Shown here: positions 13,764-49,157 of the stretch, in pieces
How positions within the stretch are numbered: position 1 is the stretch's first letter
Layout: each line of letters begins with the position of its first letter
Assembly (NCBI GenBank): GCA_002709835.1
Contig: PAQX01000019.1
Span: 46,197 to 110,196, forward strand
Direction of reading: 5' to 3'
DNA: 64,000 bases
DNA from: Deltaproteobacteria bacterium
Lineage (GTDB): Bacteria > Myxococcota_A > UBA9160 > UBA4427
Made by a program: the position numbers and the translations under genes
The notes under the pieces: model-generated
What the model was told of the DNA's origin: nothing
Databases searched by the model: none
Seen by the model: only the letters and a program-made list of their open reading frames with translations

Positions 13764-14507
13764 ATGGCGAATAATATCTACCACGGGGTCGTTCGAACAC
13801 GCGACCAGATCACTCCCAACATGCTGCGCTTCTCGCTCGAGAGCGAAGCGTTAAGCGATTTCCCAGACGGCTTTGAAGGCGGCTACGTAAAACTCGTTTT
13901 CCCGCGACCCGAGGCGAAACGACCCGCCATGAGGTCCTATACCGTTCGCTCCTTCGATCGCGGTGCCCGACAAGTCACTCTTGAGATGGTCACGCATGGC
14001 GATCTCGGACCTGCGGGTCGTTGGGCCGAACGCGCGAAGCTCGGCGATTCCATCGTCTTCGCCGGGCCAGGGCCCTGCCGCTCCGCGGACCCGAGCGCTG
14101 ATTGGTTCCTGCTAGCGGGCGACATGACAGCTCTACCAGCGATCTCTGTTCAACTTGAGAACCTCCCGCCAAACGCCGTCGGCGATGCGGTGATCGAGGT
14201 CATCAGCGACGAAGACCGTCGAAAAATCATCCGACCCGACGGCATTGAGGTCCACTGGATCACGAATCCGGAGCCGGCGCGCCCGAACTCTTTGCTCGCC
14301 GATGCTGTGATGAATCTGCCCTGGCGATCCGGCAGAGTGTCTGCTTGGATCGCCAGCGAGTTCGCAAATGCACGCGCACTACGGCAGTACATGCGACACG
14401 ACCGGGCCGTCGACCGCGATTCGCTCTACGTGAGCTGCTACTGGAAGATTGGCGATACCGATGAGGGGATGAAGGCGGCGAAGGGCTCAGATTCGGAGTC
14501 CTGGTAG
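13764..14507 (+). CDS. siderophore-interacting protein (SIP/ViuB-type flavin reductase)
   Basis: The ATG at 13764 follows GGAGAG. It has the FAD-binding RxYT motif (MRSYTVRS), LLAGDMTALPAI, WIASEFANARALRQYM and YWKIG, which together give the FAD_binding_9 + SIP layout. The longer 292-aa ORF was rejected. Confidence 0.85.
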   Translation: MANNIYHGVVRTRDQITPNMLRFSLESEALSDFPDGFEGGYVKLVFPRPEAKRPAMRSYTVRSFDRGARQVTLEMVTHGDLGPAGRWAERAKLGDSIVFAGPGPCRSADPSADWFLLAGDMTALPAISVQLENLPPNAVGDAVIEVISDEDRRKIIRPDGIEVHWITNPEPARPNSLLADAVMNLPWRSGRVSAWIASEFANARALRQYMRHDRAVDRDSLYVSCYWKIGDTDEGMKAAKGSDSESW

Positions 14508-28450: not shown

Positions 28451-29524
28451 TCAGGCCGCGTCGTTCGCGGTCGGCCCCGCGCCCGCGTCGACGCGCTTCT
28501 TCAGCCCGGCGAGATGCGGGAGGGATGCCATCACGACGTCGTAGTCCTGGACGAAATCGATCAGACAACAGACTTCGTCGATCCCGATCGACTCCATCTC
28601 CCGAACGAAGGGCAGGCAGCCCTCGGGCGTCCCGATCAGGGAGCGGTTGCGCATGAAGCCTTCGACCCCGAAATCGAGGACCGCCGAAAGGTCGTCGTCG
28701 CTGAAGTCGTCCAGGCTCACGTCGAGCCCCATTCCTTTCGCGAGGTTCTCGAGGAGCCCGTAGTGGGTCTTCAGGTACTCCCGGAAGGGCTCGCGAATGT
28801 CGCGTTTCACGGTCTCTTCGTCGTCGCCCAGGAAGGTGTGCATCATGAGCGAGACCGTGCCCGCCGCCGGGTCGTGCCCCGCCGCGCTCCTCGCCTCCCG
28901 GTACTTTCCGATCTGCTCGGCCACGTTGTCGAGGCTTTCGCCGAGGACCGAGGTCAGGATGTTCACGCCGAGCCGCCCCGCTTCGACGAAAGTCTCAGCG
29001 GACTGACAGGTGATCCAGATCGGAAGCTCCGGCTGAATCGGTCGCGGCAGCGTCTTCGCTTCGACCAGACGTCCGGCCGCGTCTTCGAACTCGACCGCTT
29101 CGCCGCGCCAGAGCCGCCGGACTTCGTCGAGACTCCGCCACATGAGTCCACGACGGCTGCCGTGGGGCTCCGAAGAAAGGATGAACTCGTCCATCGTCCA
29201 CCCGGTCGCCGCGGCCATCGCGACGCGCCCTCCGGACAGGTTGTCGACCACCGCCCAGTCCTCCGCGACGCGCACGGGATGGTGGAGCGGCAGCACGACG
29301 CTGCCGGCGCGCAACTGCACGTTCTCCGTAATCATCGCGAGGGAAGCCGCCGTAAGAGCCGGGTTCGGATAGAGTCCGCCGAACGCATGAAAATGACGCT
29401 CGGGCGTCCAGATCGCGACGAGGCCTTCGCGATCAGCGAAGCGCGCGGCGTCCTGAATGAGTCGGTAGTGATCGTCCCCGACCGCGGATCCGTCGCCGTC
29501 GAAGAAGAAGAGGCTGAACTGCAT
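28451..29524 (-). CDS. LLM-class (luciferase-like) flavin-dependent monooxygenase, free-standing
   Basis: 357 aa, MQFSLFFFDGDG...WTPERHFHAFGGLYPNP...GRVAMAAATGW. It resembles the luciferase-like monooxygenase domain that is often embedded in PKS/NRPS proteins. It is wedged between the last PKS and the first NRPS with gaps of 11 and 13 nt. Confidence 0.9.
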   Translation of the reverse strand: MQFSLFFFDGDGSAVGDDHYRLIQDAARFADREGLVAIWTPERHFHAFGGLYPNPALTAASLAMITENVQLRAGSVVLPLHHPVRVAEDWAVVDNLSGGRVAMAAATGWTMDEFILSSEPHGSRRGLMWRSLDEVRRLWRGEAVEFEDAAGRLVEAKTLPRPIQPELPIWITCQSAETFVEAGRLGVNILTSVLGESLDNVAEQIGKYREARSAAGHDPAAGTVSLMMHTFLGDDEETVKRDIREPFREYLKTHYGLLENLAKGMGLDVSLDDFSDDDLSAVLDFGVEGFMRNRSLIGTPEGCLPFVREMESIGIDEVCCLIDFVQDYDVVMASLPHLAGLKKRVDAGAGPTANDAA

Positions 29525-34191: not shown

Positions 34192-37100
34192 TCAGTCGTT
34201 CAAGAGTTCGCCGAGGGCATCGAGCTCCACCGCGAGAGCGGCCTCGAAGTCCTCTTCTTCGCCCGCAGAGTGCGGAATCGGTTGGCCCGGTGTTCCGACC
34301 GGAGTTTCTGTTCGCGGTTGTTCCGGATCTCGGCCGGGCTCGGGTTCGGTCGCGTTCGCAAAAACCAACGCGTCGAGATGGTCCGAGAGTTCGGCGATGT
34401 TCGGATACTCGAAAAGCGTGGTCGATGAGAATTCGAGACTCGCCGACGCCTCCAGGCGCGCGGTGAGATCGACGGCCATCAAGGAGTCCAGTCCCAGATC
34501 GAAGAACCCGTCGACCGCCGAAGGTAGCTCGCCTTCCGGCAGCCCCAGGACGAGTCCGATCTCACGCTGGAGCCGACGCCGGATCTCTCCGCGGCGACGC
34601 TTCTGAGGCATCCGGTCGAGCCCCGCGAAGACGCCCTCGTCCGGCGAAGTCGTAGGGCCTTTCGGAGCGGCGGCAGGGCGCGCCGGCGACTCGTTTGCGA
34701 AGAGAGAGAAGAACGGGTCACGGGCGAAGCCGGACGCCTTCGCCCAGTCGATCGGGACGACGCCGACGCGGGTCACGTCGGCCCGGCCGAGCAACGCGCC
34801 GAGCGCCGCCAGGCCCTGATTCGTTCGGATCGGTCCGATTCCGCGTCCACGCATCGCCGCCGCGACGTTCTCGTTCGCCGCCGAGCCGGTCTCCGACCAG
34901 GGCCCCCATCCGACACTGAGAGCCGGGAGCGCCCGTCGCCGGCGATGGAGCGCGAGCGCATCCAGAAAACCGTTCGCCGCCACGTGCGCGGCCTGGCCCG
35001 GAGAACCGAGCAGCGAAGCCGCCGACGAGTAGAGCACGAAGAAGTCGAGTGAGCGCGAACGCGTCGCGCGGTCGAGCTGGAGCGCGCCTTCGACCTTCGG
35101 CCGGAGAACGGTTCCGATCTTCTCCGCATCGAGCCCCTTCAACAGTCCGTCTTCGAGGACCCCTGCCGCGTGCACGACGCCCCGGAGCGGACCGCATCGC
35201 TCCGCGACTTCGATCGCCGAATCGACGTCCTCGGCGTGGGCGACGTCCCCGGCCGCGCACACGACCTCGACTCCGCGATCGACGAGTCCGTCCAGCTCGG
35301 CCGGCATTTCCTCCGGTACGCGTCGCCCCATCAATACGATCGAGCGCGCGCCGGCGTCGGCGAGCCACCGCGCGGTCGCAAGTCCCAGGCCACCGAAGCC
35401 TCCGGTGATCAGATAACTGGCCTCGGCGTCCACCGGCATCCCGGAGGCGCCGAAGTCGAGCACGATCTTCCCGGTGTGCCGCGCGTTTCGCATGAATCGA
35501 AGCGCCGCGCCCGCATGCCCGACCGCAAAGATCTGTCGGGGCAAGGGTCCCAGGTCCCCGCGCTCGAGTGCAGGGAGCCACGCGTCGAAGAGGTTCGCGA
35601 TTCGTTCCGGCTCGTCCGCGGCCATCGTCATCAGATCCACGATCCGATAGTCGACGTCGTCTCGGATCGCGCGGATGTCCTCTTCCCTCCGCAGGTCGCG
35701 CTTGCCGATCTCGAGGAAGGTCCCGCCCGGCGCGAGGGCGCGCAGGCCTTCGTCGATGAAGTCGCCAGTCAGGGAGTTCAGGATCACGTCGACGCCTCGC
35801 CCGTCCGTCGCAAGGCGAACCGCTTCTCCGAACCCGGGCCGACGGCTATCGAGAGGCGCCTCGACCCCCAACTCTCGAAGCGTCTCCCACTTCTCCCGAC
35901 TCGCGGTCGCGAAGACCCGTACACCGCGGGCCCGAGCCACCTGGATCGCCGCCATGCCCGTGCCGCCCGCCCCCGCATGCACCAGCACCGTCTGCCCCGG
36001 TTCGATTCCTGCGACTTCCACGAGCGCCTGCCAGGCCGTGAGGAAGGTCGCGGGGAGCGTCGCTCCCTCGAGCGCCGAGAACGCCCCGGGGAGCCGGGCG
36101 AGATGCAGGTCTCGCACGATCGCGCGGTCCCGGAAGCTCCCTTCGCAGAGCGCGATCACCCGATCTCCGACGGCGCATCTCTTCACACCTTCTCCGACTT
36201 CCAACACCCGCCCGCAGCACTCGACTCCGAGCCAACCGCGCTCGAAGGGCAGCATGCCCATCGAGTCGAGCACGTCGATGAAGTTGAGCCCCGCAGCGAG
36301 GACTTCTACGACGACCTCGCCCGGTCCGGGCGCGTCCGTCGTGGCCGGCACGAATCGGACGCCTCCCTCTTCACCGCGCGTCGCGGGTTCGATCCGATAG
36401 TCGGACGCCGGACGCGGATCCGGAGAGGCGAGCGGCAGACGTTCGAGTCGTTCGACCCGCGTCTTTCCGTCTCGCAGCCGCCGCGCCTCACGAACCGGGG
36501 ACGCAAGCGCCTCAAGCACCGCGGTCCGCTGCGCGTCGACGGCCGCGCTCGGATCGACGTCGATCCGCGCGCAGTCGAGCCCCGGGTGTTCCAGCCGCGC
36601 GACCTGAATGAGTCCGGCGAGCACGGCCTGCGTCGGCACTTCGTGCCCTTCCCCCGTCGCGCCGCGCGTCACCAGGGTCAGGCGAGGCCGAGAGGCGCGA
36701 TCGACGAGGTCCCGGATCGTCGAGAGAACGCGATCGATCTGCTGCGCGAGCGCCTTTGGATCGGCCGACGGAGTCGGCACGAGGAGCACGTGATCGCATT
36801 CCGCCTCACCCAGAATGGAGCTTGCTTCGAGCGTCGAAGTGAGCGCGTTCACCAGGGGCTCGTCTTCTCCGAGGACGACGGTTCTTCCCAGCACCACGGA
36901 AGGAGATTCGGGACGACGAGCGACGATCAGGCTCTGTGCCGCTTCGTGCGATTCGCTCGGCCTGAGCGCCGTCGCCTCGAATCCGGATTCGCGCAGCAAC
37001 TCGACCCAGGCGGCCGCCGACAGAAGTGGATGTGCCGGTCGGAGCGCCTCGTCCTCGAAGGCCCACCACCCCTCGGTCAGACCGAAGATCAGGTCGAGGA

Positions 37101-40100
37101 AGGGAACCACCGACGTCGACTCCAGCAAGAGCAGCGAGCCCCCGGGCGCGAGGAGTCCCCCGATTCGCTCGAGCGTCCTACGCAGGTCGGACGTTGCGTG
37201 GAGCACGTTCGCGGCCACCACCACATCATGGCTGCCCAGGGCGATCCCCTGGCCGACGGGCTCCGCGGTCACGTCGAAGCGTTCGAAGCGAAGCGACTCG
37301 TGTTCCCCGAATCGTTCGCGCGCGCGCTCGACGAGAAGCGGCGCGACGTCGCTCACCGTGTAGTCGACGCCGCCCAGCTGATCCAAGAGGAAGCGGGTCG
37401 TCGCCCCGGTTCCCGCACCAATCTCGAGGACCCGGAGCGGGCGCCTTTCCCCCCCGTTCTCGGCCACCTCTCGACGAAGCTGCGCGAACGCGGCCGCGAC
37501 CTGTTCATTCATCAGGCGCGCACCGGTCGAGCTCGCGTAGATCGCCTCGACCAGCGTCCCGTCTCCGTCCGGAAAGAGCAGGGACATCGGTGCGACTTCG
37601 CCCCGCAACACCCCGGCGAGCGAGCCTCCGCAGCGCTCGAGCAACGCGGCCTCGCTCGAGGCCGACGGCGTGCTCTCGACGAGCGCGGCCAGAGATGCCC
37701 CGAGTTCTTCGGCCGAAACGCCTCCTTCGCCTCGGGTCTCGGCTTCGCAAGCGAGCTCTCGAATCCGGCGCCAGAGACGTTCGAAGCGCGGGGGGACCGT
37801 CGCGTCTTCGCCCAGGCGCTCGCGACAGGACCAGGCATAGCCGCGGGCGGCCGCGTCGAGCTCTCCGAGCACTTCGGTGTAGGCGCGTTGTTCGTCACTC
37901 TCGGCTTCGCGACGAAAGGCCGGTGTGAGCGCTTCGACCACTTCTTCCGGGCGCGGCTGAGGGAGAGCGGTGACGACGCGTCGCTCGTCGACGCGGACGT
38001 GATAGAACCAGTCAGGATCGACCCGTTCGTGATGCCAGCGCGCTTCGCTGATCGGTCGCAGTCTGAGATCGACGAGAGAGAGAAGCGGTCGCCCCTCCCC
38101 GTCGTAGACGTCGATGGAGACCGAAACAGAGTCACGCACGATCTCGGTTCGCAGATGGGCGTGAACGAAGCCGCCCTCCCCTGGCAGACCGTGAACGACG
38201 ACCGTCCCCACGCTCGCAGGAAGGAAGGTCTCCGCTTCTGCCCGATCCAAGAAGAGTGCGGAACAAGCCTGGACGCAGGCATCCGCCACGATGGGGTCCC
38301 ATGCGAATCCGAAACCGACCCGCTCGGGACGACGGATCCGCGCGAGGGCTTCGTTTTCTCCGAGCTGAACTGCCTCGAGCAATCGCCACGCAGGTGCGTA
38401 CGTGACGGACTGCGCCGCGAGGCGCGCCCAGCAGTCTTCCGGATCGACACTGTTCGGACAGCGCCCACGAATCGCCTCCAGATCCGCGGAAGGCCGCGCG
38501 TCCGCCGCCGCCCCTGAATCGATCCGCCCGACGCAGTGCGTGTCCCAATCGCCGTTCGGCGTGCGGCTCAAGACGCGGAAACGACGACCGTTCGCGGCCG
38601 GCTCGACTTCGATCTGGGCATCTTCTGCCTGGTCCAGTCGAAGCGCGCCGGTAAAGTGCACGGCGGAAATCCTGAGTCGGGCGTCTTCGCCACCGAGTCG
38701 TCGTGCAGCCTCGAGGCCTAGGCCCCAGAGCCCCGCCGCGGGCAACACCGAGTCACCGAACACGCGATGTCCCTGCCAGATCGGCTGCGCGAGCACGTCG
38801 CGAGAAAGCGCGTGGATCGATCGGTCGCCGTCACCCGGATGGAGCGCGGGACCGAGCACCCCCTGTCGCCTCGGCTCGACCGTCGACTGCGCGAGCGCGG
38901 CGTGCCCCCTCTCGGACGCGTCCGGCGCGGCCCAATGCTCCCGACGCACGAAGCGATAGGTCGGCAGGTCCACAGCGGCTCCCGGCGCGTCTCCCCAATG
39001 GAGTCCCACGCCGGCTTCGAAAGCGGCCCCGAGCGCAGCCAGAAAGTCCTCGCCGTCTTCACTTCGTCCGCGGAGGCTTGGAATGCGGGGGCCCTGCCAT
39101 TCCGGTGCGATCCGAGACGAGAGTGGAATCAGCGTGGGACGCGATCCGATCTCGACCAGCAGATCGATCCCGTCCTCGACGAGCGCCGAGACGGCCTCCG
39201 CATAGCGGACGGGGGAGCGGATCTGCCGCGTCCAGTAGGCCGCGTCGAGTCGCTCTTCGAGAACCCGCGCTCCGGTGGCGGTGGAATAGAAGCGCAGACC
39301 GGGCGCGCTCGGCACCGCCCGGAAATCGCGCTCGAAGTCACCGAGAATCGGCGCCATCAAGTCCGAATGAAACGCATGGGAGACCGCGAGGCGCTGACTC
39401 TCGAAGCCGAGCGCCGAAAGGGCTTCAGTCGCCGCAGCGAGGTCCGCGTTCGTCCCCGCGATCACGGTGTTCCTCGGACCGTTCATCGCGGCGATCTCGA
39501 CGCCGGCGGGAAGCGCAGACCCGACCTTCTCCGGCTCCCCGAAGACCACGACCATCCCACCGTTCGGGGGGAGCGATCCCATCAATCGTCCCCGCAAGAC
39601 GACCGCCTCGAGCGCCTCTTCCACTCCGAGAACGCCTGCCGCGACGGCCGCCGCGTATTCGCCGATGCTGTGGCCCAGGACCGCGCTCGGCTCGACGCCC
39701 CAGGCGCGCCAGGCCTCGCAGAGCCCATAGGCGAGCGCAAAGAGTGCGGGCTGGGCGTGCTCGGTCTTCTCGAGTTCGCGGGCAGCTCGTTCTTCCCATC
39801 CTTCGCCCCCGGGCGCCGGATGGATCAGACCGAGAAGGTCGAGACCCGCGTTCGCCGAGAGCCAATCCGCACATCGATCGATCGCCGCCCGGAATGCCGG
39901 TTGAGTCGCGTAGAGCCCGCGCCCCATGCCGATGGCCTGGGAGCCCTGCCCGGTAAACAGGAACGCAACCCTCGGCTTGCGGTGGGCCGGCTGGCGGACG
40001 CCACCGTCCTCCGCCGCGAGTCGAGTCTGGACGCGCTCGATCGCCTCGAGTGCAGACGTACGATCGCGAGCAACGACGGCGACGCGCTCCTCGAAACACT

Positions 40101-41637
40101 CGCGATCGCGCAGGGCACTGAAACAGACGTCGGTCCACGGCGAGCCCCCCGCGATCGAGTCGCGGAGTGCGTCGAGCTGCGCCGCGAGAGCCGGACGTTC
40201 GCGGGCGGACACGCAGAGCAACGAAGCACGGTCCAGGGACGGCTCCGGAGCAGGCCGCGCATCGCCTGGAATCGCCTCGGGTCCCGCGAGGACCACGTGC
40301 GCGTTGGTTCCGCTGAACCCGAAGGAACTGACGCCGGCGTTGCGCGCGCGGTCCGACTTCCAGGCTTCGGGATCACGCAGGATCTGGATCGGCGTTTCGT
40401 CCCACGGAATTCGGGTGCTCGGGGCCTCGCAATGCAGATGTTTCGGAAGCGACTCGTGATCGAGCGCGAGAATCGTCTTGATCACACCCCCGATCCCCGC
40501 CGCGGCTTCCATGTGTCCGACGTTGGTCTTGAGCGACCCGACGCGTACGACTTCGTCGCGCGCGCCACCGAAGACTTCACCGAGGGCCCGCGCTTCGATC
40601 GGGTCGCCGAGCTCGGTCCCCGTCCCGTGCGCCTCGACATAGTCGACATCGGCGGGCTCGATCCCGGCGTCGGCCAGCGCGGCTCGGATCACGGCCTGCT
40701 GGGCGGGGCCGTTCGGAACCGTCAGCCCCCCGCTCCGGCCATCCTGATTGACGGCGGAGCCACGTACGATCGCGAGCACGCGATCGCCGTCTCGCCGGGC
40801 CTCGTCGAGCCGCTTGAGGACGAGGACCCCGCAGCCCTCGGCTCGGCCGAAGCCATCCGCTCCCTCTCCGAAGGCCTTGCAGCGCCCGTCGGGCGCGAGC
40901 ATTCGCGCGCTCGAGAAGTTCACGGTGAACTCGGGCGAGAGCAATCGATTCACGCCCCCGACGAGTGCCGCACGACACTCGCCCCGACGTAGACTCGCGA
41001 CCGCGAGGTGGAGAGCGACGAGCGACGAAGAGCAGGCCGTATCGACGGCCATCGCCGGCCCGTTGAAGCCCCACGTGTAGGCGAGCCGGCCCGCGGCGAC
41101 GCTATGCGAGTTGCCCGTCGCCAGATACGGATCGATCGACTCGAGGGGCCGCGACAGAAGTCGTTGGGAGTAGTCGTGGCCACTGATGCCGACGAACACA
41201 CCGATGGAGTCACCCTGCCACTCCGACGGAACGACACGCGCGTGCTCCATCGCTTCCCAACCGACTTCCAACAAGAGCCGCTGCTGCGGATCGAGGGTCG
41301 CGGCTTCCCTCGGCGACAAGCCGAAGAAGGAAGCGTCGAACTCTCGAGGCGAACCGATGAACCCGCCTTCGCGCGTGACGACCTTTCCCGGCGTCGCGGG
41401 GTTGGAATCGAAGAGCGCCTCGGCGTCCCAGCGATCGGTCGGCACGGGGCCGATCGCGTCGCCTCCGCGATCGAGAAGCTCCCAGAAGGCATCCGGATCC
41501 TCGCCCCCGGGAAAACGGCAACCGAGCCCGATCACCGCGACCGGGGCGCGCGAAGCTCGTTCGCTCGCCTCGAGTCGTGACTGCAGCCGCTCGATCGTCT
41601 TCATCGCGCGGAGGAGTCGTTCGCGATCCTGACTCAT
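34192..41637 (-). CDS. type I PKS module: KS-AT-DH-cMT-ER-KR-ACP (2481 aa)
   Basis: KS: DTACSSSLVALH, EAHGTGTELGD, NVGHME. AT: GHSIGEY, HAFHS. DH: HRVFGDSVLP, DPIVADACVQ. cMT: LRVLEIGAGTGATT. ER: VLVHAGAGGTGMAAIQ. KR: ITGGFGGLGLA, LED, PKVEG, YSSAAS, AAHVAAN. ACP: LGLDSLMAVDL. Joined to the upstream gene by an ATGA overlap (41634-41637). Confidence 0.95.
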   Translation of the reverse strand: MSQDRERLLRAMKTIERLQSRLEASERASRAPVAVIGLGCRFPGGEDPDAFWELLDRGGDAIGPVPTDRWDAEALFDSNPATPGKVVTREGGFIGSPREFDASFFGLSPREAATLDPQQRLLLEVGWEAMEHARVVPSEWQGDSIGVFVGISGHDYSQRLLSRPLESIDPYLATGNSHSVAAGRLAYTWGFNGPAMAVDTACSSSLVALHLAVASLRRGECRAALVGGVNRLLSPEFTVNFSSARMLAPDGRCKAFGEGADGFGRAEGCGVLVLKRLDEARRDGDRVLAIVRGSAVNQDGRSGGLTVPNGPAQQAVIRAALADAGIEPADVDYVEAHGTGTELGDPIEARALGEVFGGARDEVVRVGSLKTNVGHMEAAAGIGGVIKTILALDHESLPKHLHCEAPSTRIPWDETPIQILRDPEAWKSDRARNAGVSSFGFSGTNAHVVLAGPEAIPGDARPAPEPSLDRASLLCVSARERPALAAQLDALRDSIAGGSPWTDVCFSALRDRECFEERVAVVARDRTSALEAIERVQTRLAAEDGGVRQPAHRKPRVAFLFTGQGSQAIGMGRGLYATQPAFRAAIDRCADWLSANAGLDLLGLIHPAPGGEGWEERAARELEKTEHAQPALFALAYGLCEAWRAWGVEPSAVLGHSIGEYAAAVAAGVLGVEEALEAVVLRGRLMGSLPPNGGMVVVFGEPEKVGSALPAGVEIAAMNGPRNTVIAGTNADLAAATEALSALGFESQRLAVSHAFHSDLMAPILGDFERDFRAVPSAPGLRFYSTATGARVLEERLDAAYWTRQIRSPVRYAEAVSALVEDGIDLLVEIGSRPTLIPLSSRIAPEWQGPRIPSLRGRSEDGEDFLAALGAAFEAGVGLHWGDAPGAAVDLPTYRFVRREHWAAPDASERGHAALAQSTVEPRRQGVLGPALHPGDGDRSIHALSRDVLAQPIWQGHRVFGDSVLPAAGLWGLGLEAARRLGGEDARLRISAVHFTGALRLDQAEDAQIEVEPAANGRRFRVLSRTPNGDWDTHCVGRIDSGAAADARPSADLEAIRGRCPNSVDPEDCWARLAAQSVTYAPAWRLLEAVQLGENEALARIRRPERVGFGFAWDPIVADACVQACSALFLDRAEAETFLPASVGTVVVHGLPGEGGFVHAHLRTEIVRDSVSVSIDVYDGEGRPLLSLVDLRLRPISEARWHHERVDPDWFYHVRVDERRVVTALPQPRPEEVVEALTPAFRREAESDEQRAYTEVLGELDAAARGYAWSCRERLGEDATVPPRFERLWRRIRELACEAETRGEGGVSAEELGASLAALVESTPSASSEAALLERCGGSLAGVLRGEVAPMSLLFPDGDGTLVEAIYASSTGARLMNEQVAAAFAQLRREVAENGGERRPLRVLEIGAGTGATTRFLLDQLGGVDYTVSDVAPLLVERARERFGEHESLRFERFDVTAEPVGQGIALGSHDVVVAANVLHATSDLRRTLERIGGLLAPGGSLLLLESTSVVPFLDLIFGLTEGWWAFEDEALRPAHPLLSAAAWVELLRESGFEATALRPSESHEAAQSLIVARRPESPSVVLGRTVVLGEDEPLVNALTSTLEASSILGEAECDHVLLVPTPSADPKALAQQIDRVLSTIRDLVDRASRPRLTLVTRGATGEGHEVPTQAVLAGLIQVARLEHPGLDCARIDVDPSAAVDAQRTAVLEALASPVREARRLRDGKTRVERLERLPLASPDPRPASDYRIEPATRGEEGGVRFVPATTDAPGPGEVVVEVLAAGLNFIDVLDSMGMLPFERGWLGVECCGRVLEVGEGVKRCAVGDRVIALCEGSFRDRAIVRDLHLARLPGAFSALEGATLPATFLTAWQALVEVAGIEPGQTVLVHAGAGGTGMAAIQVARARGVRVFATASREKWETLRELGVEAPLDSRRPGFGEAVRLATDGRGVDVILNSLTGDFIDEGLRALAPGGTFLEIGKRDLRREEDIRAIRDDVDYRIVDLMTMAADEPERIANLFDAWLPALERGDLGPLPRQIFAVGHAGAALRFMRNARHTGKIVLDFGASGMPVDAEASYLITGGFGGLGLATARWLADAGARSIVLMGRRVPEEMPAELDGLVDRGVEVVCAAGDVAHAEDVDSAIEVAERCGPLRGVVHAAGVLEDGLLKGLDAEKIGTVLRPKVEGALQLDRATRSRSLDFFVLYSSAASLLGSPGQAAHVAANGFLDALALHRRRRALPALSVGWGPWSETGSAANENVAAAMRGRGIGPIRTNQGLAALGALLGRADVTRVGVVPIDWAKASGFARDPFFSLFANESPARPAAAPKGPTTSPDEGVFAGLDRMPQKRRRGEIRRRLQREIGLVLGLPEGELPSAVDGFFDLGLDSLMAVDLTARLEASASLEFSSTTLFEYPNIAELSDHLDALVFANATEPEPGRDPEQPRTETPVGTPGQPIPHSAGEEEDFEAALAVELDALGELLND

Positions 41638-44600
41638 GCCGGATCCTCGTTCCCGAGTGCGAGCAGCGCCTCGAGCTCATCGAGTTTCCGATCGATCGCG
41701 TCCTCGTCCGGCGCAGTAGTCGATTCGCCGCGCGGGTCGCCCGCACCCGACGTGGAGCCTTCCGGGGTGCGGACTGCGAGATCCGGCGTAGGCGCCGAAT
41801 CGGGGAACAGGCGCGCCTCCAGCAGATCGAGCAGAGCGACCGGCGTCGGATGATCGAAGAGCAGTGTTTCCGGAAGCGCGATCCCGAGGTCGGATTCGAT
41901 CCGGTTCCCCAGCTCGAGGGCCGTCAGGGAGTCGACGCCGAGATCGAAGAAGCCGAGACGCGGATCGATCGCATCCGGCGTGAGGTCGAGAACCCGCGCG
42001 AGATGTTCGATCACGTGCTCATCGAGTCGCTCACGACGTTCTCCGGGCGGGAGTGCCGCAAGGGTTTCGAGCAGACGCGCCGCTTCGACGCCGACCGGAG
42101 TCGCGCCGCTCTGGGCTGCGTCGGCTTCGGCGTCGGAGAGCACCTGCTCGAAGTAGGGAAGCGACGCGACCGCGGGAATCCGCGAGACCTGATCGAGGTC
42201 GGCCTCGATGATCCCGATCGTGCCCCGCCGCGCGTTCCACACGTGACCGAGATGATCGAGGGCCTCCTTCGGCGCAAGCATGCCGATCCCGGGCAGCGCG
42301 CCGAGCGCCTCTCGCCGCCCGAGCACCGCTTCCGACTCGTCTTCCACACCTTCTTCCGTATACGCGAGCGCGGCGCCGATCTCGCTCCAGGGGCCCCATG
42401 CGATACTCAAGGCGGGCAGGCCGAGAGCACGGCGATATTCCGCGAACCCATCGAGGAATCGATTGGCTGCCGCGTGGTTGGTCTGCCCGGGCGCGCCGAG
42501 CAGACCCGACGCCGACGAGAAGAGTACGAAGGCCTCGAGCGGGAGGTCCCGGGTCACGTTGTGGAGATGGACGGTCCCGTCGACCTTGGGCGCGAGGACC
42601 CGTTCGAAGTCCTCACGCTCGAGCCGACCGATCGCGCCGTCCGCGAGGGTCCCCGCAGCATGGATCACGCCCGCGAGCGGAACCCCACTCTGCTGCGTCG
42701 TCCACGGAGCCAACGCCTCGGCGAGGCCGGCTTCGTCCGTGACGTCGGCCTGGACGAGGGTGACCGAGGCGCCCAGGGCTTCGAGCGCGCGAAGGTCTTC
42801 TACCTGACGGCCCTCCGGTCGGGCGTTGCGTGCGAGGAGAACGAGATGTAGCGCCCCGCCATCCACGAGCCAACGCGCGACCGCGAGGCCCAGGCCACCG
42901 AGGCCACCCGTCACGAGATAGGCCGCGTCGTCGCGCAGTGAGAAAGGCACGGAATGGATCGCGGCCGCGTCCCCCGTGTCCCTGGAGAAGTCGAGAACGA
43001 GCTTTCCGACGTGCTGTCCGCGCTGCATCGTCCGGAACGCGCGGGTCGCCGCCGCGGCTTCGATCCGGCTCGTCGGCAGGGGGCGCCAATCGTGCTGGTC
43101 CACGCCCGAGACGACGCGTTTCAAAACGTCGGCCACTTCGCTCGGCGCCTCCGAGGACAGCGCCGCGAGATCGAGCACGAAATGGGAAAGGTCCGGGCGA
43201 CTCGCCGCGATCTCCTCGGGCGACGGTCCCTGGCCCTTGCCGATCTCGACGAAGCGACCGCCCGCGACCGTCACGTCGATCGAGCGCTGTCGCATTTCGC
43301 CAGGGAGTGCACTCAGGACGACGTCGACGCCCCGCCCGCCTGTCGCTTCGAGCACCGCCTCTGCAAATCCCGGATCCCGGGAGTCGAGCGCGAGTTCCAC
43401 GCCCAAAGCTTCGAGCGCGGCACGCTTCGAGGCGCTCGCGCTCCCGAAGACCCGAGCTCCCCGGGAACGCGCGATCTGGACCGCGGCCTGTCCCACCCCA
43501 CCCGTCGCGTTGTGGATGAGGACCGTCTCGCCCGGACCAAGCGCCGCGCGGTCGAGCAACCCGGCCACGGCGGTCGCGAACGCGACCGGAAGCGTCGCCG
43601 CTTCCACGAAGTCGAGGCCGCGCGGCAGACGCACGGCGAGCCCCGCACGGACGACGACCTCGGATGCGAAACAACCGGCCCCGAGCGCCATCACCGGATC
43701 GCCCACGGAAAGGCCCTCGACATCCGACCCGATTTCCGCGACGACCCCGACGCACTCGCAGCCCATCTCGCCCGGCTCCGGGTAGAGGTCGAGGGCGATC
43801 AGCACGTCGCGAAAATTCAGGCCTGCCGCACGCACGTCGACGCGGACCTCGTCGGACCCGAGCGACGGAACGCACTCGCCGGCTTCCATCGCAAGCTGGT
43901 CCAGCGTACCGACGGCACGATGAACCAAGCGCCGAGGCGCCTCCGCGCCGTGAACGGAGCCTACCCGAGCGAGACGGGCGACGCGACGGCGACCGCCTGC
44001 GTAGTTCACCTCGACCTCGTCGTTCGTCGAACGAAGTTCCGCGACGGCCTCGGACGAAGAATCCGCCACGATGAGCCGGGTCCGCCAGGTCGGGCGCTCG
44101 AGGGCGAGGGCCTGGAGGAAGCCTCGGATCGCAGACGCCGCGAGTCGGTCCTCCTTCGAGGGATCGATCACGACGACGGAGAGTTCGAGATGGGTCGAAC
44201 GCGCGGCCCGAGTAGTTTCCTCGAAGAGCGAGACGACCGGCTCACGGATCGAAGCGTCGAGCGAAGCTCCGGAGGGCGGAACGACGACGAGGTGCGCGTC
44301 CTCATCTTCAATGGAAAGAGACGAGCGCGACACGGGATGGCCCGCTTCGCGCAGCTTCGCCTCGAGCCTGTCGAGGGGATCGCCTTCGCCCACGAGCCGA
44401 ATGGGCCGAGCGACACGCGACTTGAACGCGACGAGCACACTCTGCGCAGGCGCCGCCGCCTCCTCCGGGAGCATCGGCGCACTGTCCACGAAACCCGCCT
44501 CGGCCAGTACCGAATCCCAGTCCGCGCCCGAGAGCAGCGGCGCGTGCGCGCGACGGGACGCATCGTCGAAACGCCACCATCCCTCCGTGACGCCGAAGAC

Positions 44601-47600
44601 GAGGTCGAGCCACGGCTGCGATCGCGTGCCCTCGAGCAGAACGAGAGCGCCGCCCGGTGCGAGAAGCGTCTCGATCTGCCGAAGAGAACCCACGACATCG
44701 GCCGTCGCATGCACGACGTTCGCCGCCAAGATCAGATCGAAGCGATCGTGACCGACCGCCGGGCGCTCGAGGTCGAGGGTCTCGAAGTCCATATTCGCGC
44801 GGTCGGCGAATCGGGCGCGGGCACGGGCGACGAGCTGCGGAGAGAGGTCGGTGAACGTATACGACGAGCCTTCGGCGCGATCGTCGAGAATCGACAGGAC
44901 GTGCTCGGTCGTCCCCCCGGTTCCGCCGCCGAGTTCGAGGACCCGGAGCGGTCGCCCGGCGGCGGCGTCCGATAGATGCGCGATCACCCGGCCGACCTGA
45001 GCGTTCATCGCGCGCGCTCCGACCGACTCGCCGTACAGCGCCTGGAGCCGACCGGCGTCGCCCTTCGGAAAGAGGACCGACAGCGGATCGACTTCTCCGC
45101 GTAGAATCCGCGGCAGCGCTTCGCCGACGCGATCGACGAACTCGGCTTCCGTCTCGAGCGCCGGGTACCGGTTCACCAACGCCGTCCCATCGCTGCCCGC
45201 CGCTCCAGACGAAACGCTGGCGGCCATCTCCTGGAGGCGCGCCACGAATCGCGCCGTCGTTCTCGACGATCCCAACGCCTCCAGGTCGACGTCCTCGAGT
45301 GCACGCTTCGCGTGTCCCGCGGCCACGTGGTCGAGTTCGGCCAGTCCTTTCTGATAGGCCTCGACCTGCGGGTCGCCCAAAGCGCGGTCGAAGTCCGGAG
45401 CGATGGCCTTCGCCAGGACCGAAGCAGCCGGGAACGACGGGGGCGCTTCGATGGCCGTGCCTGACGCTTCGACGTACTCGACGTCGAAGTAGGGGAGCAG
45501 ACGATCCCCCGCGAGCGCGGCCCCGGGGCCCGAGAAACGACCGAGAATCAGACGATCGAGGGTCGCGACGACCTGGCCTTCCAGACCGAGCCAGCGAACA
45601 CACGCGCTGCCATCCTCGGACCGGGAGGCCTTGATCCTGCGCGCACGATCCAGCGCGCTCTCGATCCTCAACCCCCGTAGCGCGATCGGGACGAGCGTCT
45701 CGTCTTCACGCGACGGACCGAGATTCGTCTCGAAGAGCGGCCCCGCCGCCTGGAGTCCGAGGTCGAGCAACTGGACCGGATCCGCGCCGACATCGGCGTG
45801 AAGGCTCGCCAGCACCTCGTCGTCCTGAATCACGATCCCGTCGATCCCCTGGAAGCGGGCTCCGTACGCGAGCCCCCGATCGGCGAGCTTCGAGTAGAAC
45901 TCGGAAGCCGAGACCGAAGGGACCGCGTGCCAATCGGCGTCCGGACCGTCGATCCCTGCTGTGATCGATGACGCGACCCGTTCCAGGCGTCCATGCGCAT
46001 GGAGCACGAATTCATCGTCGGCCCGCGACCAGATTTCGAAGCGATGCCCTCCCTCCTTCTCGGGCTGGAGTTGGGTCTGGATCTCACGGCGGCACGAAGC
46101 CGGAAGCACGAGCGGTGCGCGCAGGGTCAGCTCCGAGACACAGGCGGTCGCGTCGGCGCGGATGTAACCGGCCGCCCGAGCCGCCGCGAGCGCGAGTTCC
46201 ACGAATCCAGTCGCCGGCCACCAGACCTCGCCCTGGACGACGTGATCCGCGACACGGCGATCGCCCCCGTCCACCTCCATCGAGAAGCAGCGAACGAGGT
46301 CGCCCGCGATGGGAACGCGACGCCCGGGCCATGCGCTCGTCGTGAGGGGCCGTGCCAACTCCGCGGAAGCCGGATCGATCCAATAGCGCTCGCGCAGGAA
46401 GGGCTGGTTCGGGAGACGAGATCGCACGGCCCCCGCGGCTCCCGCGACGCCTCCCCAATCGACGTCGACTCCGGCGTCATAGAGGCTGGTCAGCGCCGAA
46501 TCGATCGCCAGCACGCGCGCCGCCCCCGGCCGAGCGGGGCGTAGACTCGGCGCGCCGAAGAAGGGACTGCCGAGCATCGCGCGCGACAGCCCGAGCAGCG
46601 TCGAGCGGGGTCCGATCTCGACGAACCGCGTCGACGGCGCATCCTCCGCGACGCCGAGGGCGCCGAGGGCCTCGCGGAATCGAACGGGCTCCGTCAGCTG
46701 CCGCACCCAATGCGCGGCGCCGAGCGACGCCCCATCGACTCGGCTCCCCGTCACCGTCGAGGCCCAGCGTGTCGCAGCCGGCGCGAACCGGATCGAGGCG
46801 CCGGCCTCCGCGAACGCCCCCGCCATCGGCGCCATCATGCGTCCGTGGAACGCGTGGGAGACGCTCAGCCGCGTCGCGCGAATCGATCTTTCGGACGCGC
46901 GCGCTGCGATCCGTTCGATCGCGTCAGGCGGACCGGCGACGACGGATTCGGCCCCATTGTCAGCCGCAAGGTCGACGGGCTCCCCTTCGAGAAGCGCTTC
47001 GATTTCGCTTGCCGGACGGGAGAGCGCCAACATTGCGCCGCCGGGAAGCGCCTGCATCATTCGTCCGCGCTCCGCGACCCAGAGGAGCGCTTCGTCCCAG
47101 TCGAGCGCGCCCGCGACGCAGGCCGCGGCGAACTCGCCGACGCTATGTCCGAGAACGGCGTCCGGCTCGATGCCCCACGATCGCCAGAGCGCGACCAGCG
47201 CGCGTTGGAGCGAGAAGATCAGGGGCTGCGCGAGCCCCGTCTGCTCCAGCACCGCTTCCGAGACCGCGTCCGTCTCGCCTGAGAACACGGCGAGCAGGTC
47301 GGGACCACCGGCTTCGCGAAGTCGCGACGCGCAGCGCTCGATCGTTTCCCGGAACACGGGCTCACGTTCGAAGAGTTCGTGACCGAGGGCCGGGTAGAGC
47401 CCACCCTGCCCCGAGAACAGAAAGACGACACGGGGGGACGACGAGACCCGCCCGACGTCCGTGGTCGCCAGGGCCTCGAGCTCGTGAACGAGGGTTTGGG
47501 GATCCGCGGCCGCGATCGCGCGGCGATAGGGCCCCTGACTTCGACGTTCGTTGTGGAAGGCGCATCGCTCGGCCAGGTCGCCGCGAAGGCCCTCGCCCCA

Positions 47601-49157
47601 GCGCGCATAGGCGCGCGCGAGCACGTTCAGGTGGGAGGCGCTCTTCGCCGAGAGCGCGAGGACGGCTGGCCGGGTCTCGTTTCCCGCGGCTTCACGCGGA
47701 TCGCCTCGGACCTCGGTCGAAAGCCCTGTCACGAGTCGACTCGCCTCCGAGTCGACGGATTCGACGACGAGATGCGCGTTCGTGCCGCTCATCCCGAAGC
47801 TGCTGATCCCGGCGCGACGCGGTCGATCCGCCTCGGGCCACGCGAGGGTCTCGGTCGGAACGGTGAAGCCGAGTCGGTCGAAGTCGATCCGCGGCGACGG
47901 TCGGTCGCAGTGGAGGTGACTCGGAATCCGAGCGGCCGAGAGCGCGAGGACCAGTTTCAGCAGGCCCGCAGCGCCCGCCGCGGATTCGAGATGGCCGAGA
48001 TTCGTCTTGACCGATCCGACATAACAAGGCGCCTCTCGCGGACCGAGCGCGTCGTGCAGCGCATCGAGCTCGATCGGGTCTCCGAGCGGCGTCCCCGTCC
48101 CGTGCGCCTCGACGTAGTCGAGGTCGCGACCGGACCAGCCAGCGTCCTGGAGCGCGGCGCGAACGACCTCCGTCTGGGCCGATCGGCTGGGCGCCGTTAG
48201 GCCGTTGCTCCGTCCGTCGTGGTTGATCCCCGAGCCACGGATCAACGCGAGCGTGTCCTGAGGGTCCGCCTCGCCCGCTCGCTCGAGAACGAATGCCGCG
48301 CAGCCCTCACCGCGTCCATAGCCGTCGGCGTCTTCCGAGAAGGTCTTGCAGCGCCCGTCGGGCGAGAGCGCCCGCAACTTGCAACACGCGACCGTGGACT
48401 CCGGCGTGAGCACCAGGTTCACGCCGGCGACGAGTGCCCGATCGATCTCGCGCCGACGAAGCGCCTGGAGAGCGAGGTGGATCGCAACGAGTGAGGAGGA
48501 GCAGGTCGTGTCGATCTGGAGCGCCGGTCCGTTCAGGCCGAACGTGTACGCGATCCGACCCGCCGCGATCGCCCGCTGTGAACCCAGCGCGCTGTGGGCG
48601 TCGATCCGCGCCGGATCGCCTGATCGAACGGTGCGATTGGCGTAGTCGTCGAGACTGAGTCCGACGTAGACGCCCGTTCGCGAGCCACGCAACGAGTCGA
48701 TCGGGATTCCTGCGTTCTCGAAGGCTTCGTGGGCACACTCGAGAAGCAGTCTCTGCTGTGGATCGAGGTTCCGCGCCTCGCGCGGTGAGATCCCGAAGAA
48801 CCCCGGATCGAACCCGGCAGGATCTTCGACGAACGCGCCGCGTCGCGTGTACATCCGTCCGGGCACGTCGGGGTCCGGGTCGTACCAGGCTTCTACGTCC
48901 CAGCGCTCGGGCGGAACCTCGCTCGTCGCATCAAAGCCGCGTTCCAGGGCGGACCAGAACGCTTCGGGGGATTCGATTCCACCGGGAAGACGGCAAGCCA
49001 GACCCGTGATCGCGACGGGGGCGCGCTCCGCTGCGTCCCGCGCCTCCAGTTCACCCCGAAGCGCGCGCAGTTCGAGGGCGGCTTCGCGCAGGAGTGCATC
49101 CCGGTCGTCGACCGACCGCGCGCCCGATTCGGGCCCGGCACTCTTGCGCGACGTCAC
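41634..49157 (-). CDS. type I PKS module: KS-AT-DH-cMT-ER-KR-ACP (2507 aa)
   Basis: KS: DTTCSSSLVAIH, EAHGTGTPLGD, NLGHLE. AT: GHSVGEF, HAFHG. DH: HVVQGEVWWP, LLDLGLQ. cMT: LRVLELGGGTGGTT. ER: VLIHNATGGVGQAAVQ. KR: VTGGLGGLGLA, LAD, PKVDG, FSSASG, TNHAAAN. ACP: LGVDSLTALEL. Has a coiled-coil-like N-terminal leader. Confidence 0.95.
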   Translation of the reverse strand: MTSRKSAGPESGARSVDDRDALLREAALELRALRGELEARDAAERAPVAITGLACRLPGGIESPEAFWSALERGFDATSEVPPERWDVEAWYDPDPDVPGRMYTRRGAFVEDPAGFDPGFFGISPREARNLDPQQRLLLECAHEAFENAGIPIDSLRGSRTGVYVGLSLDDYANRTVRSGDPARIDAHSALGSQRAIAAGRIAYTFGLNGPALQIDTTCSSSLVAIHLALQALRRREIDRALVAGVNLVLTPESTVACCKLRALSPDGRCKTFSEDADGYGRGEGCAAFVLERAGEADPQDTLALIRGSGINHDGRSNGLTAPSRSAQTEVVRAALQDAGWSGRDLDYVEAHGTGTPLGDPIELDALHDALGPREAPCYVGSVKTNLGHLESAAGAAGLLKLVLALSAARIPSHLHCDRPSPRIDFDRLGFTVPTETLAWPEADRPRRAGISSFGMSGTNAHLVVESVDSEASRLVTGLSTEVRGDPREAAGNETRPAVLALSAKSASHLNVLARAYARWGEGLRGDLAERCAFHNERRSQGPYRRAIAAADPQTLVHELEALATTDVGRVSSSPRVVFLFSGQGGLYPALGHELFEREPVFRETIERCASRLREAGGPDLLAVFSGETDAVSEAVLEQTGLAQPLIFSLQRALVALWRSWGIEPDAVLGHSVGEFAAACVAGALDWDEALLWVAERGRMMQALPGGAMLALSRPASEIEALLEGEPVDLAADNGAESVVAGPPDAIERIAARASERSIRATRLSVSHAFHGRMMAPMAGAFAEAGASIRFAPAATRWASTVTGSRVDGASLGAAHWVRQLTEPVRFREALGALGVAEDAPSTRFVEIGPRSTLLGLSRAMLGSPFFGAPSLRPARPGAARVLAIDSALTSLYDAGVDVDWGGVAGAAGAVRSRLPNQPFLRERYWIDPASAELARPLTTSAWPGRRVPIAGDLVRCFSMEVDGGDRRVADHVVQGEVWWPATGFVELALAAARAAGYIRADATACVSELTLRAPLVLPASCRREIQTQLQPEKEGGHRFEIWSRADDEFVLHAHGRLERVASSITAGIDGPDADWHAVPSVSASEFYSKLADRGLAYGARFQGIDGIVIQDDEVLASLHADVGADPVQLLDLGLQAAGPLFETNLGPSREDETLVPIALRGLRIESALDRARRIKASRSEDGSACVRWLGLEGQVVATLDRLILGRFSGPGAALAGDRLLPYFDVEYVEASGTAIEAPPSFPAASVLAKAIAPDFDRALGDPQVEAYQKGLAELDHVAAGHAKRALEDVDLEALGSSRTTARFVARLQEMAASVSSGAAGSDGTALVNRYPALETEAEFVDRVGEALPRILRGEVDPLSVLFPKGDAGRLQALYGESVGARAMNAQVGRVIAHLSDAAAGRPLRVLELGGGTGGTTEHVLSILDDRAEGSSYTFTDLSPQLVARARARFADRANMDFETLDLERPAVGHDRFDLILAANVVHATADVVGSLRQIETLLAPGGALVLLEGTRSQPWLDLVFGVTEGWWRFDDASRRAHAPLLSGADWDSVLAEAGFVDSAPMLPEEAAAPAQSVLVAFKSRVARPIRLVGEGDPLDRLEAKLREAGHPVSRSSLSIEDEDAHLVVVPPSGASLDASIREPVVSLFEETTRAARSTHLELSVVVIDPSKEDRLAASAIRGFLQALALERPTWRTRLIVADSSSEAVAELRSTNDEVEVNYAGGRRRVARLARVGSVHGAEAPRRLVHRAVGTLDQLAMEAGECVPSLGSDEVRVDVRAAGLNFRDVLIALDLYPEPGEMGCECVGVVAEIGSDVEGLSVGDPVMALGAGCFASEVVVRAGLAVRLPRGLDFVEAATLPVAFATAVAGLLDRAALGPGETVLIHNATGGVGQAAVQIARSRGARVFGSASASKRAALEALGVELALDSRDPGFAEAVLEATGGRGVDVVLSALPGEMRQRSIDVTVAGGRFVEIGKGQGPSPEEIAASRPDLSHFVLDLAALSSEAPSEVADVLKRVVSGVDQHDWRPLPTSRIEAAAATRAFRTMQRGQHVGKLVLDFSRDTGDAAAIHSVPFSLRDDAAYLVTGGLGGLGLAVARWLVDGGALHLVLLARNARPEGRQVEDLRALEALGASVTLVQADVTDEAGLAEALAPWTTQQSGVPLAGVIHAAGTLADGAIGRLEREDFERVLAPKVDGTVHLHNVTRDLPLEAFVLFSSASGLLGAPGQTNHAAANRFLDGFAEYRRALGLPALSIAWGPWSEIGAALAYTEEGVEDESEAVLGRREALGALPGIGMLAPKEALDHLGHVWNARRGTIGIIEADLDQVSRIPAVASLPYFEQVLSDAEADAAQSGATPVGVEAARLLETLAALPPGERRERLDEHVIEHLARVLDLTPDAIDPRLGFFDLGVDSLTALELGNRIESDLGIALPETLLFDHPTPVALLDLLEARLFPDSAPTPDLAVRTPEGSTSGAGDPRGESTTAPDEDAIDRKLDELEALLALGNEDPA

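Follow-up and report, generated by a model that had tools for sequence, protein, structure and literature searches.

Histidine-type ketoreductases in two C-methylating polyketide synthase modules of an uncultured marine bacterium

The window, a stretch of 64,000 nucleotides, encodes two polyketide synthase (PKS) modules, PKS1 and PKS2, whose ketoreductase (KR) domains carry His at the position of the catalytic Tyr. Both KRs are very probably working NADPH-dependent B-type β-ketoreductases, belonging to a His-type variant typical of those cis-AT PKS modules that contain a C-methyltransferase (cMT). The His-type KR, found also in working pathways such as that of yersiniabactin, is an ordinary, widespread and already noted variant, not a defect.

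PKS1 and PKS2 share one domain layout, in which the cMT precedes the KR. Their AT domains carry the malonyl-specific motif HAFH, so SAM would be the source of the methyl branches. The modules, their domains outside the KR, and the Tyr-type KR of a third PKS are as follows.

41634..49157 (-), PKS1, KS-AT-DH-cMT-ER-KR-ACP, 2507 aa, follows the FAAL-ACP loader as first extension module (ORF list, translation, Pfam)
45528..46319 (-), PKS1 dehydratase (DH), aa 947-1210, HVVQGEVWWP (Pfam and motif)
44490..45005 (-), PKS1 C-methyltransferase core, aa 1385-1556, SAM motif LELGGGTG (Pfam and motif; query of the KR-blind survey)
42993..43856 (-), PKS1 enoylreductase (ER), aa 1768-2055, HNATGGVG (Pfam and motif)
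34192..41637 (-), PKS2, KS-AT-DH-cMT-ER-KR-ACP, 2481 aa, second extension module (ORF list, translation, Pfam)
38041..38790 (-), PKS2 dehydratase, aa 950-1199, HRVFGDSVLP (Pfam and motif)
36970..37488 (-), PKS2 C-methyltransferase core, aa 1384-1556, SAM motif LEIGAGTG (Pfam and motif)
35458..36327 (-), PKS2 enoylreductase, aa 1771-2060, HAGAGGTG (Pfam and motif)
30091..30681 (-), PKS3 KR, in a KS-AT-KR-ACP module without cMT (Tyr1327, TAC, 30178-30180; internal control)

The initial annotation had called the DH and ER domains of both modules apparently functional, and their motifs are consistent with this: the DH HxxxGxxxxP motif is intact in both, as are the ER motifs GGVG (PKS1) and GGTG (PKS2). 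Two word-seeded homolog searches, in which all proteins returned were shorter than about 1820 aa, yielded no close ortholog (best identities 57% and 46%). In a scan of species-representative genomes, the best match among the matches listed was 59% identical.

Histidine in the catalytic tyrosine column of both ketoreductases

The KR features of the two modules are listed below.

42381..42926 (-), PKS1 KR catalytic subdomain, aa 2078-2259, His-type, B-type (LAD) (PF08659, PDB alignment, AF2/Foldseek)
42474..42476 (-), PKS1 His2228 (CAC), catalytic Tyr column (PDB alignment, multiple alignment, codon position)
42372..42374 (-), PKS1 Ala2262, lid position co-varying with His (KR alignment; helix after the last strand of the model, low confidence)
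34891..35421 (-), PKS2 KR catalytic subdomain, aa 2073-2249, His-type, B-type (LED) (PF08659, alignment)
34984..34986 (-), PKS2 His2218 (CAC), catalytic Tyr column (phmmer multiple alignment, codon position)
34882..34884 (-), PKS2 Ser2252, co-varying lid position (KR alignment)

In the translations, the active-site stretch reads PGQTNHAAANRFLD in PKS1 (core GQTNHAAAN) and PGQAAHVAANGFLD in PKS2 (core GQAAHVAAN). Both domains match PF08659 over its full length (profile positions 1-180), with scores of 212.9 bits for PKS1 and 206.9 bits for PKS2 against a cut-off of 22.6 bits. When the PKS1 KR was aligned with solved KRs by phmmer (E = 1.6e-38 for EryKR1), its His paired with the catalytic Tyr of EryKR1 (GAPGLGGYAPGN) and of 8g7w (GSPGQGNYSAAN), gap-free around the site in each case. 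The PKS2 His shares this column in the phmmer multiple alignment. Where Type I PKS and FAS KRs are usually recognized by the Tyr of YxxxN, these two domains therefore have His2228 and His2218, as the initial annotation had proposed. On these alignments, the assignment of His to the column is secure for both KRs. The claim that the third PKS keeps Tyr also held, its KR reading SAYAAAN in translation.

The remainder of the active site is complete, in agreement with the earlier reading of the translations. The catalytic Lys, Ser and Asn are K2191, S2215 and N2232 in PKS1 and K2181, S2205 and N2222 in PKS2. Lys lies in APKVDG (PKS1) or RPKVEG (PKS2), Ser in LFSSASG or LYSSAAS, and Asn in HAAAN or HVAAN. 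The LxD motif is LAD or LED, and the NADPH-binding TGGxGxxG motif is TGGLGGLG or TGGFGGLG.

An AF2 model of the PKS1 KR (pLDDT 83) gave EryKR1, Lsd14 and a MAS-like KR as its best Foldseek matches, and places the His at the N-terminus of model helix 161-180, the usual place of the SDR catalytic Tyr. The fold is that of canonical B-type Tyr KRs such as EryKR1 (PDB 2FR0/6W7S; Foldseek probability 1.0, TM 0.74-0.77). These canonical domains share with the window KRs the Rossmann motif, the Lys/Ser/Asn set and the LDD-type Asp, at 39-44% identity. They differ in the general-acid position, which is occupied by Tyr, and in the lid, where the motif WGxWxxxGMA has Met; their modules use methylmalonyl extender units where PKS1 and PKS2 have a cMT.

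The lid difference extends beyond these examples. At the last position of the motif W-G-x-W-x-x-x-G-X, Tyr-type KRs have Met or Leu and His-type KRs have Ala, Ser or Glu; Met/Leu was found in 0/80 His-KRs versus 102/157 Tyr-KRs. Ala2262 and Ser2252 give PKS1 and PKS2 the small or polar residue typical of His-type KRs.

Spread of the His-type variant and its association with C-methylation

His-type KRs are widespread. The species-representative genome scan returned at least 600 matches, the best of them mostly His-type and drawn from more than ten phyla. The family consensus at the site is GQANHAAAN. Across many phyla, His-type KRs retain Lys (81/81), Ser (80/81), Asn (76/81) and the LDD Asp (76/81), and those of a set seeded by cMT similarity retain Lys in 31/31, Ser in 31/31 and Asn in 26/31. 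This conservation lends comparative support to the earlier suggestion that the change reflects selection and not decay.

A survey of public PKS KRs with their module context, proposed in the initial annotation, found His to be common and concentrated in cMT modules. In 79 genome loci, a sample partly selected on the His motif, cMT modules carried 60 His and 2 Tyr, and modules without cMT, often in the same assembly line, carried 5 His, 35 Tyr and 3 Phe; 60 of the 65 His-KRs thus sat in cMT modules, and His was present in 40/40 cMT-ER-KR modules. A KR-blind survey used 147 representatives picked solely by similarity to the PKS1 cMT core. Here 28/31 His-KRs lay in cMT modules, compared with 26/209 Tyr-KRs (Fisher p = 1.4e-17, His versus non-His). 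The cMT-ER-KR modules of this set had 12 His and 0 Tyr, the cMT-KR modules without ER had 16 His and 26 Tyr, and modules without cMT had His in 3/187 KRs.

Because His is so rare in modules without cMT, its presence in both KRs here is not a coincidence. With His in all cMT-ER-KR modules of the two module-level surveys (12/12 and 40/40, or 52/52 combined), any module of this type would be expected to have it, and the pattern is not peculiar to the locus. The initial annotation had described a change shared by two paralogous modules. Both do carry His, but at 37% identity over the full length PKS1 and PKS2 are not close paralogs with a recent common mutation; each therefore appears to have inherited the residue from the cMT-module lineage.

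The association is a strong tendency and not a rule, since Tyr occurs in some cMT modules: the 26 cMT-KR modules without ER mentioned above, and 25/72 cMT-ER-KR proteins of a word-seeded set. Among His-type modules whose AT motif could be read, a small sample, 10/10 had HAFH, and AT specificity was compared between His-type and Tyr-type cMT modules on very few modules.

Characterized pathways and competing explanations

The variant is also present in pathways with known products. HMWP1 (irp1) of yersiniabactin assembly, with the PKS module KS-AT-cMT-KR-ACP, resembles PKS1 and PKS2 in having His in the Tyr column (GAPGQSAHALAC), a cMT upstream in the same module, the conserved Lys and Ser, and a lid residue, Arg, that is not Met/Leu. 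It differs from them in that no DH or ER was detected and Cys replaces the catalytic Asn, and its KR scored only 78.5 bits against the PKS1 KR by phmmer. The HMWP1 substrate is gem-dimethylated. The NAD(P)H-dependent keto reduction step in yersiniabactin assembly is assigned to this KR (PMC9547227). GphF, the gephyronic acid PKS of Archangium violaceum Cb vi76, has two KS-AT-DH-cMT-KR-ACP modules with cMT-derived methyl branches. Their KRs are His-type like those of PKS1 and PKS2, both with GQANHAAAN, a lid Ala and the LDD motif; unlike in the window, the cMT and KR are not separated by an ER. The host of GphF is a myxobacterium in culture whose product is known, whereas the window comes from an uncultured marine bacterium. 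Since the products of the HMWP1 and GphF pathways need the reduction, these cases give comparative support to the proposal of a KR subclass in which His occupies the general-acid position.

The novelty implied by the initial annotation fails. The variant is widespread, and a 2020 review already states that the KR Tyr is at times replaced by His, crediting the remark to Keatinge-Clay 2012 (PMC7327777); these are the grounds on which the annotation itself had said that its claim should be given up. In keyword searches of the literature, this single sentence was the sole mention of the replacement, and the motif strings NHAAAN, HAAAN and YAAAN, looked up as text, led to nothing relevant. E. coli ClbB, tried as a Tyr control, gave no detectable KR with a single-sequence query. 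A PDB search with the His-type consensus returned only Tyr-type KRs as its best matches, so that no structure of a His-type KR appears to exist, and the keyword searches brought up no biochemical, mutational or structural work on such a domain. The role of His as proton donor is for this reason one that we infer from its position.

Could the two KRs be reductase-dead, C-type-like remnants, with α-methyl-β-keto intermediates released and the DH and ER idle? The canonical Tyr is indeed missing from both, as it is from some C-type KRs, and a Tyr-to-Phe mutation abolishes the activity of canonical KRs (PMC7327777). C-type KRs, however, are described as lacking the active-site Asn, and the C1 types Ser and Tyr too (PMC7327777); the class is defined by a degenerate cofactor site or by loss of Asn, Ser or both, and PKS1 and PKS2 retain Asn, Ser, Lys and the NADPH motif, all of them conserved. 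The His state is moreover conserved together with Lys, Ser and Asn across many phyla, HMWP1 and GphF need reduction yet have His, and dead KRs in 52/52 cMT-ER-KR modules would demand the systematic keeping of useless DH, ER and KR domains. We consider this reading very improbable. Still less probable is the earlier suggestion that a separate reductase acts in trans on embedded KRs that serve as mere scaffolds. The window does encode one stand-alone SDR, at 9265-10170 (-), but it is the only one, it lies about 24 kb from PKS2 with unrelated genes between, and its pattern TGGGTGLG ... MVHSAAARAG is one that we take to resemble dienoyl-/enoyl-CoA reductases and not FabG or 3-oxoacyl reductase. 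A purely structural KR would need neither the conserved NADPH motif nor the Lys/Ser/Asn set, and His-type KRs occur in many unrelated clusters, where no partner would be needed. Decay and reduction in trans are both poorly supported.

A different question is whether the association of His with cMT reflects anything beyond common descent of a cMT-(ER)-KR cassette, His being a neutral substitute for Tyr with no tie to methylation chemistry. We hold this to be possible, although on balance unlikely. The nearest neighbour of a His-type KR is usually another His-type KR (57/80), Tyr is found in some cMT modules, and a cMT-KR at one locus (L058) that combines Tyr with the His-type lid residue Glu suggests that the residues can be swapped on one scaffold. 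Against this, a crude NJ tree of 237 KR domains, too weakly resolved to carry much weight, implied 32 parsimony state changes and contained no large pure His clade, and the tight covariation with the lid points to a coordinated change of the active site and not to a neutral swap.

Predicted reaction order and significance

Our preferred reading is that both KRs most likely act as B-type reductases after α-methylation. Extension of the FAAL-primed acyl chain would fall to the KS and the malonyl-specific AT (HAFH) of each module, after which the cMT would methylate the α-carbon of the β-ketoacyl-ACP. The His-type KR would next reduce the ketone, with His in the general-acid position of Tyr and with Lys, Ser and Asn unchanged, before dehydration by the DH and saturation by the ER. 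Together, PKS1 and PKS2 would add two saturated α-methyl C2 units to the fatty-acyl starter. For the locus itself nothing unusual is implied; the predicted product segment is a 2,4-dimethyl-branched saturated acyl.

In practice, the finding matters chiefly for annotation. Under rules that demand the S-Y-N triad, His-type KRs would be labelled inactive, and product predictions would then be wrong for many cMT clusters in cyanobacteria, myxobacteria and uncultured phyla. On the evidence given here, His-type cMT modules are better read as reducing.

The link between His and cMT, together with a single co-varying lid residue, also provides a concrete mutational handle on the ordering of KR and cMT within a module. 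We tentatively raise the possibility, speculative at this stage, that Tyr-to-His and lid Met/Leu-to-Ala/Ser/Glu form a single co-adapted remodelling of the KR active site that enforces reaction order: the His-type KR would be poor on unmethylated and efficient on α-methylated β-ketoacyl-ACP, with the smaller lid admitting the methyl. If so, reduction would never pre-empt methylation; the His/lid pair would mark, at sequence level, kinetic gating between two domains within a single module, and would offer a handle for placing SAM-derived methyl branches in engineered PKSs.

Histidine in the catalytic tyrosine column of two KR domains

Pfam analysis resolved a hybrid cluster on the minus strand of contig PAQX01000019.1, with further NRPS and tailoring genes of the region encoded on the plus strand. 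Exact matches of its monooxygenase were found in marine metagenome contigs, including those of TARA Oceans, indicating that the host organism is uncultured.

Minus-strand genes of the hybrid cluster, in order, with Pfam domain assignments
49161-51368, minus: FAAL-ACP loader
41634-49157, minus: PKS1, 2507 aa, KS-AT-DH-cMT-ER-KR-ACP
34192-41637, minus: PKS2, 2481 aa, KS-AT-DH-cMT-ER-KR-ACP, adjoining PKS1
29536-34158, minus: PKS3, KS-AT-KR-ACP, without a C-methyltransferase (cMT) domain
28451-29524, minus: luciferase-like monooxygenase
23698-28437, minus: first of two NRPS genes
15932-23887, minus: second of two NRPS genes
14544-16415, minus: MatE exporter, last in the order

The initial annotation had placed a histidine at the catalytic tyrosine position of the PKS1 and PKS2 KRs, and this was borne out in every detail, motif strings included, by the translations, phmmer and a 241-domain alignment. 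Both KR matches to Pfam are full-length (212.9 bits for PKS1, 206.9 bits for PKS2). In a phmmer comparison with solved structures, the PKS1 histidine aligns on the catalytic tyrosine of EryKR1 and of 8g7w, a type I reducing region, with the site region ungapped; the PKS2 histidine falls in the same column of the 241-domain alignment. Both residues are encoded by CAC (42474-42476 and 34984-34986, respectively). The remaining motifs are intact in the two modules: Lys, Ser, Asn, the B-type LxD Asp, TGGxGxxG, the DH HxxxGxxxxP and the ER glycine motif. PKS3, which lacks a cMT, retains the tyrosine (SAYAAAN). AlphaFold modeled the PKS1 KR with confidence (pLDDT 83), and the closest structures by Foldseek are PKS KRs; in the model, His2228 lies at a helix N-terminus, the usual place of SDR catalytic tyrosines.

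The Tyr-type KR of PKS3 (30091-30681, minus) matches PF08659 with only 71 bits. Although it carries Lys, Ser, Tyr and Asn, its cofactor motif is atypical (IVGDPTGGLA instead of TGGxGxxG) and it has no WGxW lid motif; its competence is more open to doubt than that of the His-type KRs of PKS1 and PKS2.

Neighboring genes encode a TauD-family dioxygenase (1597-2496, minus), a fatty-acid hydroxylase (8096-9268, plus), a siderophore-interacting protein (SIP/FAD_binding_9; 13629-14507, plus) and a CmlA-like diiron β-hydroxylase (55281-58451, plus). Together with the MatE exporter and the FAAL-ACP loader, they suggest that the product is a peptide siderophore, acylated and β-hydroxylated, whose lipid tail is methyl-branched. 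The CmlA-like gene, an ORF of 1056 aa, joins a CmlA-type diiron β-hydroxylase N-domain to a metallo-β-lactamase fold and ends in an NAD_binding_4 reductase. Its docking domain, of the TubC N-terminal type, lies mid-protein (aa 585-631), which suggests that genes have fused or that a boundary between them was overlooked.

Distribution of His-type KRs and their association with cMT domains

The survey of public KRs recovered the histidine across many phyla, mostly in cMT modules. Two word-seeded searches returned 241 KR domains (81 His, 159 Tyr, 1 Asn), a His share inflated by the preference of such searches for candidates sharing words with the query. A scan of one genome per species with the His-type KR alignment, using [PAR]GQxNH[AVS]AAN as one of two search patterns, gave at least 600 matches, and at least 573 stretches were confirmed as relatives. 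Its best 79 loci span Cyanobacteria, Myxococcota, Acidobacteriota, Chloroflexota, Alpha- and Gammaproteobacteria, Verrucomicrobiota, Bacteroidota, Latescibacterota and other phyla, and the variant is widespread.

The variant is also already known, and the novelty implied by the initial annotation therefore fails by that annotation's own test. A review (PMC7327777), crediting Keatinge-Clay 2012, describes the KR tyrosine as "sometimes replaced by histidine", and characterized pathways contain it. E. coli UTI89 irp1 (L084:30201-39692) encodes HMWP1, the PKS-NRPS of yersiniabactin, a pathway that has been reconstituted in vitro. The PKS module of HMWP1 has the layout KS-AT-cMT-KR-ACP, and the KR sequence, GAPGQSAHALAC, carries His at the position where PKS1 and PKS2 do. 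This KR is credited with the assembly line's NAD(P)H-dependent keto reduction (PMC9547227). It has Cys for the catalytic Asn (HALAC), which PKS1 and PKS2 keep, and Arg as lid residue; its departure from the canonical triad exceeds that of the window KRs, though it is part of a working pathway. One representative from the cMT-seeded search falls in the cluster of GphF, the gephyronic acid PKS, both of whose KS-AT-DH-cMT-KR-ACP modules read GQANHAAAN.

At the 79 genome loci, where cMT and non-cMT modules often adjoin in one assembly line, cMT modules carried 60 His and 2 Tyr, and modules without cMT carried 5 His, 35 Tyr and 3 Phe. Because these loci were chosen partly via the His motif, a KR-blind control was run, in which the PKS1 cMT domain alone was searched exhaustively against 1.84 billion representatives. 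In the resulting 147 representatives, cMT modules carried 28 His, 26 Tyr and 1 Phe, against 3 His and 183 Tyr in modules without cMT (Fisher p = 1.4e-17); most of the latter have no detectable AT and so largely represent trans-AT systems. All 12 cMT+ER modules were His-type, and cMT-KR modules without ER were mixed (16 His, 26 Tyr). Histidine thus forecasts a cMT very well, while a cMT forecasts histidine in about half of cases overall. In the cMT-ER-KR layout of PKS1 and PKS2, histidine is the norm, and their KRs are ordinary for this architecture.

The two Tyr exceptions among cMT modules of the genome loci come from a Vicinamibacteria MAG (L058), whose Tyr accompanies a His-type lid Glu, apparently a His-type scaffold that reverted to Tyr, and a delta proteobacterium MAG (L040), with Tyr and the canonical Met lid residue. 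More than 20 MAGs share one layout, in which KS-AT-cMT-ER-KR(His)-ACP precedes KS-AT (L012, L014, L019, L020, L022, L031, L032, L035, L039, L042, L044, L046, L048, L049, L051, L062, L063, L065, L066, L070, L072, L074), many with Glu as lid residue. The MAGs come from widely separated phyla (Alphaproteobacteria, Tepidiformaceae, Latescibacterota, Acidobacteriota, Binatia, Opitutales, Acidimicrobiia and others), and the shared layout looks like one conserved small PKS locus with a wide spread across uncultured bacteria.

A co-varying lid residue and the proposed role of histidine

His-type and Tyr-type KRs were compared column by column by total variation distance. Only one other column differed strongly (0.89; all remaining columns ≤0.41), the X of W-G-x-W-x-x-x-G-X-A past the last β-strand, which is Met/Leu in Tyr-type KRs versus Ala/Ser/Glu in His-type KRs. 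Met/Leu occurred there in 102 of 157 Tyr-type KRs versus none of 80 His-type KRs. The residue is Ala2262 in PKS1 and Ser2252 in PKS2; in the PKS1 model, Ala2262 sits in a low-confidence helix that forms the flexible lid above the active site, where it may touch the histidine. Elsewhere, His-type KRs conserve Lys in 81/81 domains, Ser in 80/81, and Asn and the LDD Asp in 76/81 each, which marks their active site as constrained and working.

Best supported is the reaction order usual for this type of module. From the observed sequence features and comparative pattern, we infer that PKS1 and PKS2 would each condense, α-methylate the β-ketoacyl-ACP through the cMT, carry out a B-type reduction with histidine as proton donor, dehydrate through DH and finally saturate through ER. 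Jointly they would extend the fatty-acyl starter by a saturated 2,4-dimethyl segment, after which PKS3 would add a β-hydroxy unit using its Tyr-type KR. Since all three ATs carry the malonyl signature HAFH, the methyl branches must derive from the cMT domains.

That the KRs have instead decayed to an inactive state is very improbable: Asn, Ser, Lys and the cofactor site are intact, the His state is conserved across phyla, the downstream DH and ER are intact, and HMWP1 and GphF carry the same residue. The initial preference for selection over decay was right on these grounds. Reduction supplied in trans, which it also raised, is harder still to credit, as the single candidate reductase in the window, a stand-alone SDR (9265-10170, minus), is distant and resembles dienoyl-/enoyl-CoA reductases. 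This SDR (adh_short, 153.8 bits; TGGGTGLG) has MVHSAAARAG in place of the YxxxK of classical SDRs and lacks the canonical Tyr/Lys spacing.

Common descent, in which a cMT-(ER)-KR cassette spread with histidine as a neutral equivalent of tyrosine, is unlikely but deserves more weight than either. In its favor, the nearest neighbor of a His-type KR is also His-type in 57 of 80 cases, and the Vicinamibacteria KR appears to have reverted; however, the tight lid covariation and the failure of a crude tree to give a clean His clade both argue for functional coupling. A tentative form of such coupling is that histidine and a small lid residue adapt the KR to await or prefer an α-methylated substrate.

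A literature search found no structure, mutagenesis or kinetics of any His-type KR, and a PDB search with the His-type consensus gave only Tyr-type KRs as top matches. The value of the finding rests on this lack of mechanistic work, the His-cMT rule and the co-varying lid residue, rather than on the locus itself. If true, a KR preference for the α-methylated substrate would enforce methylation ahead of reduction.
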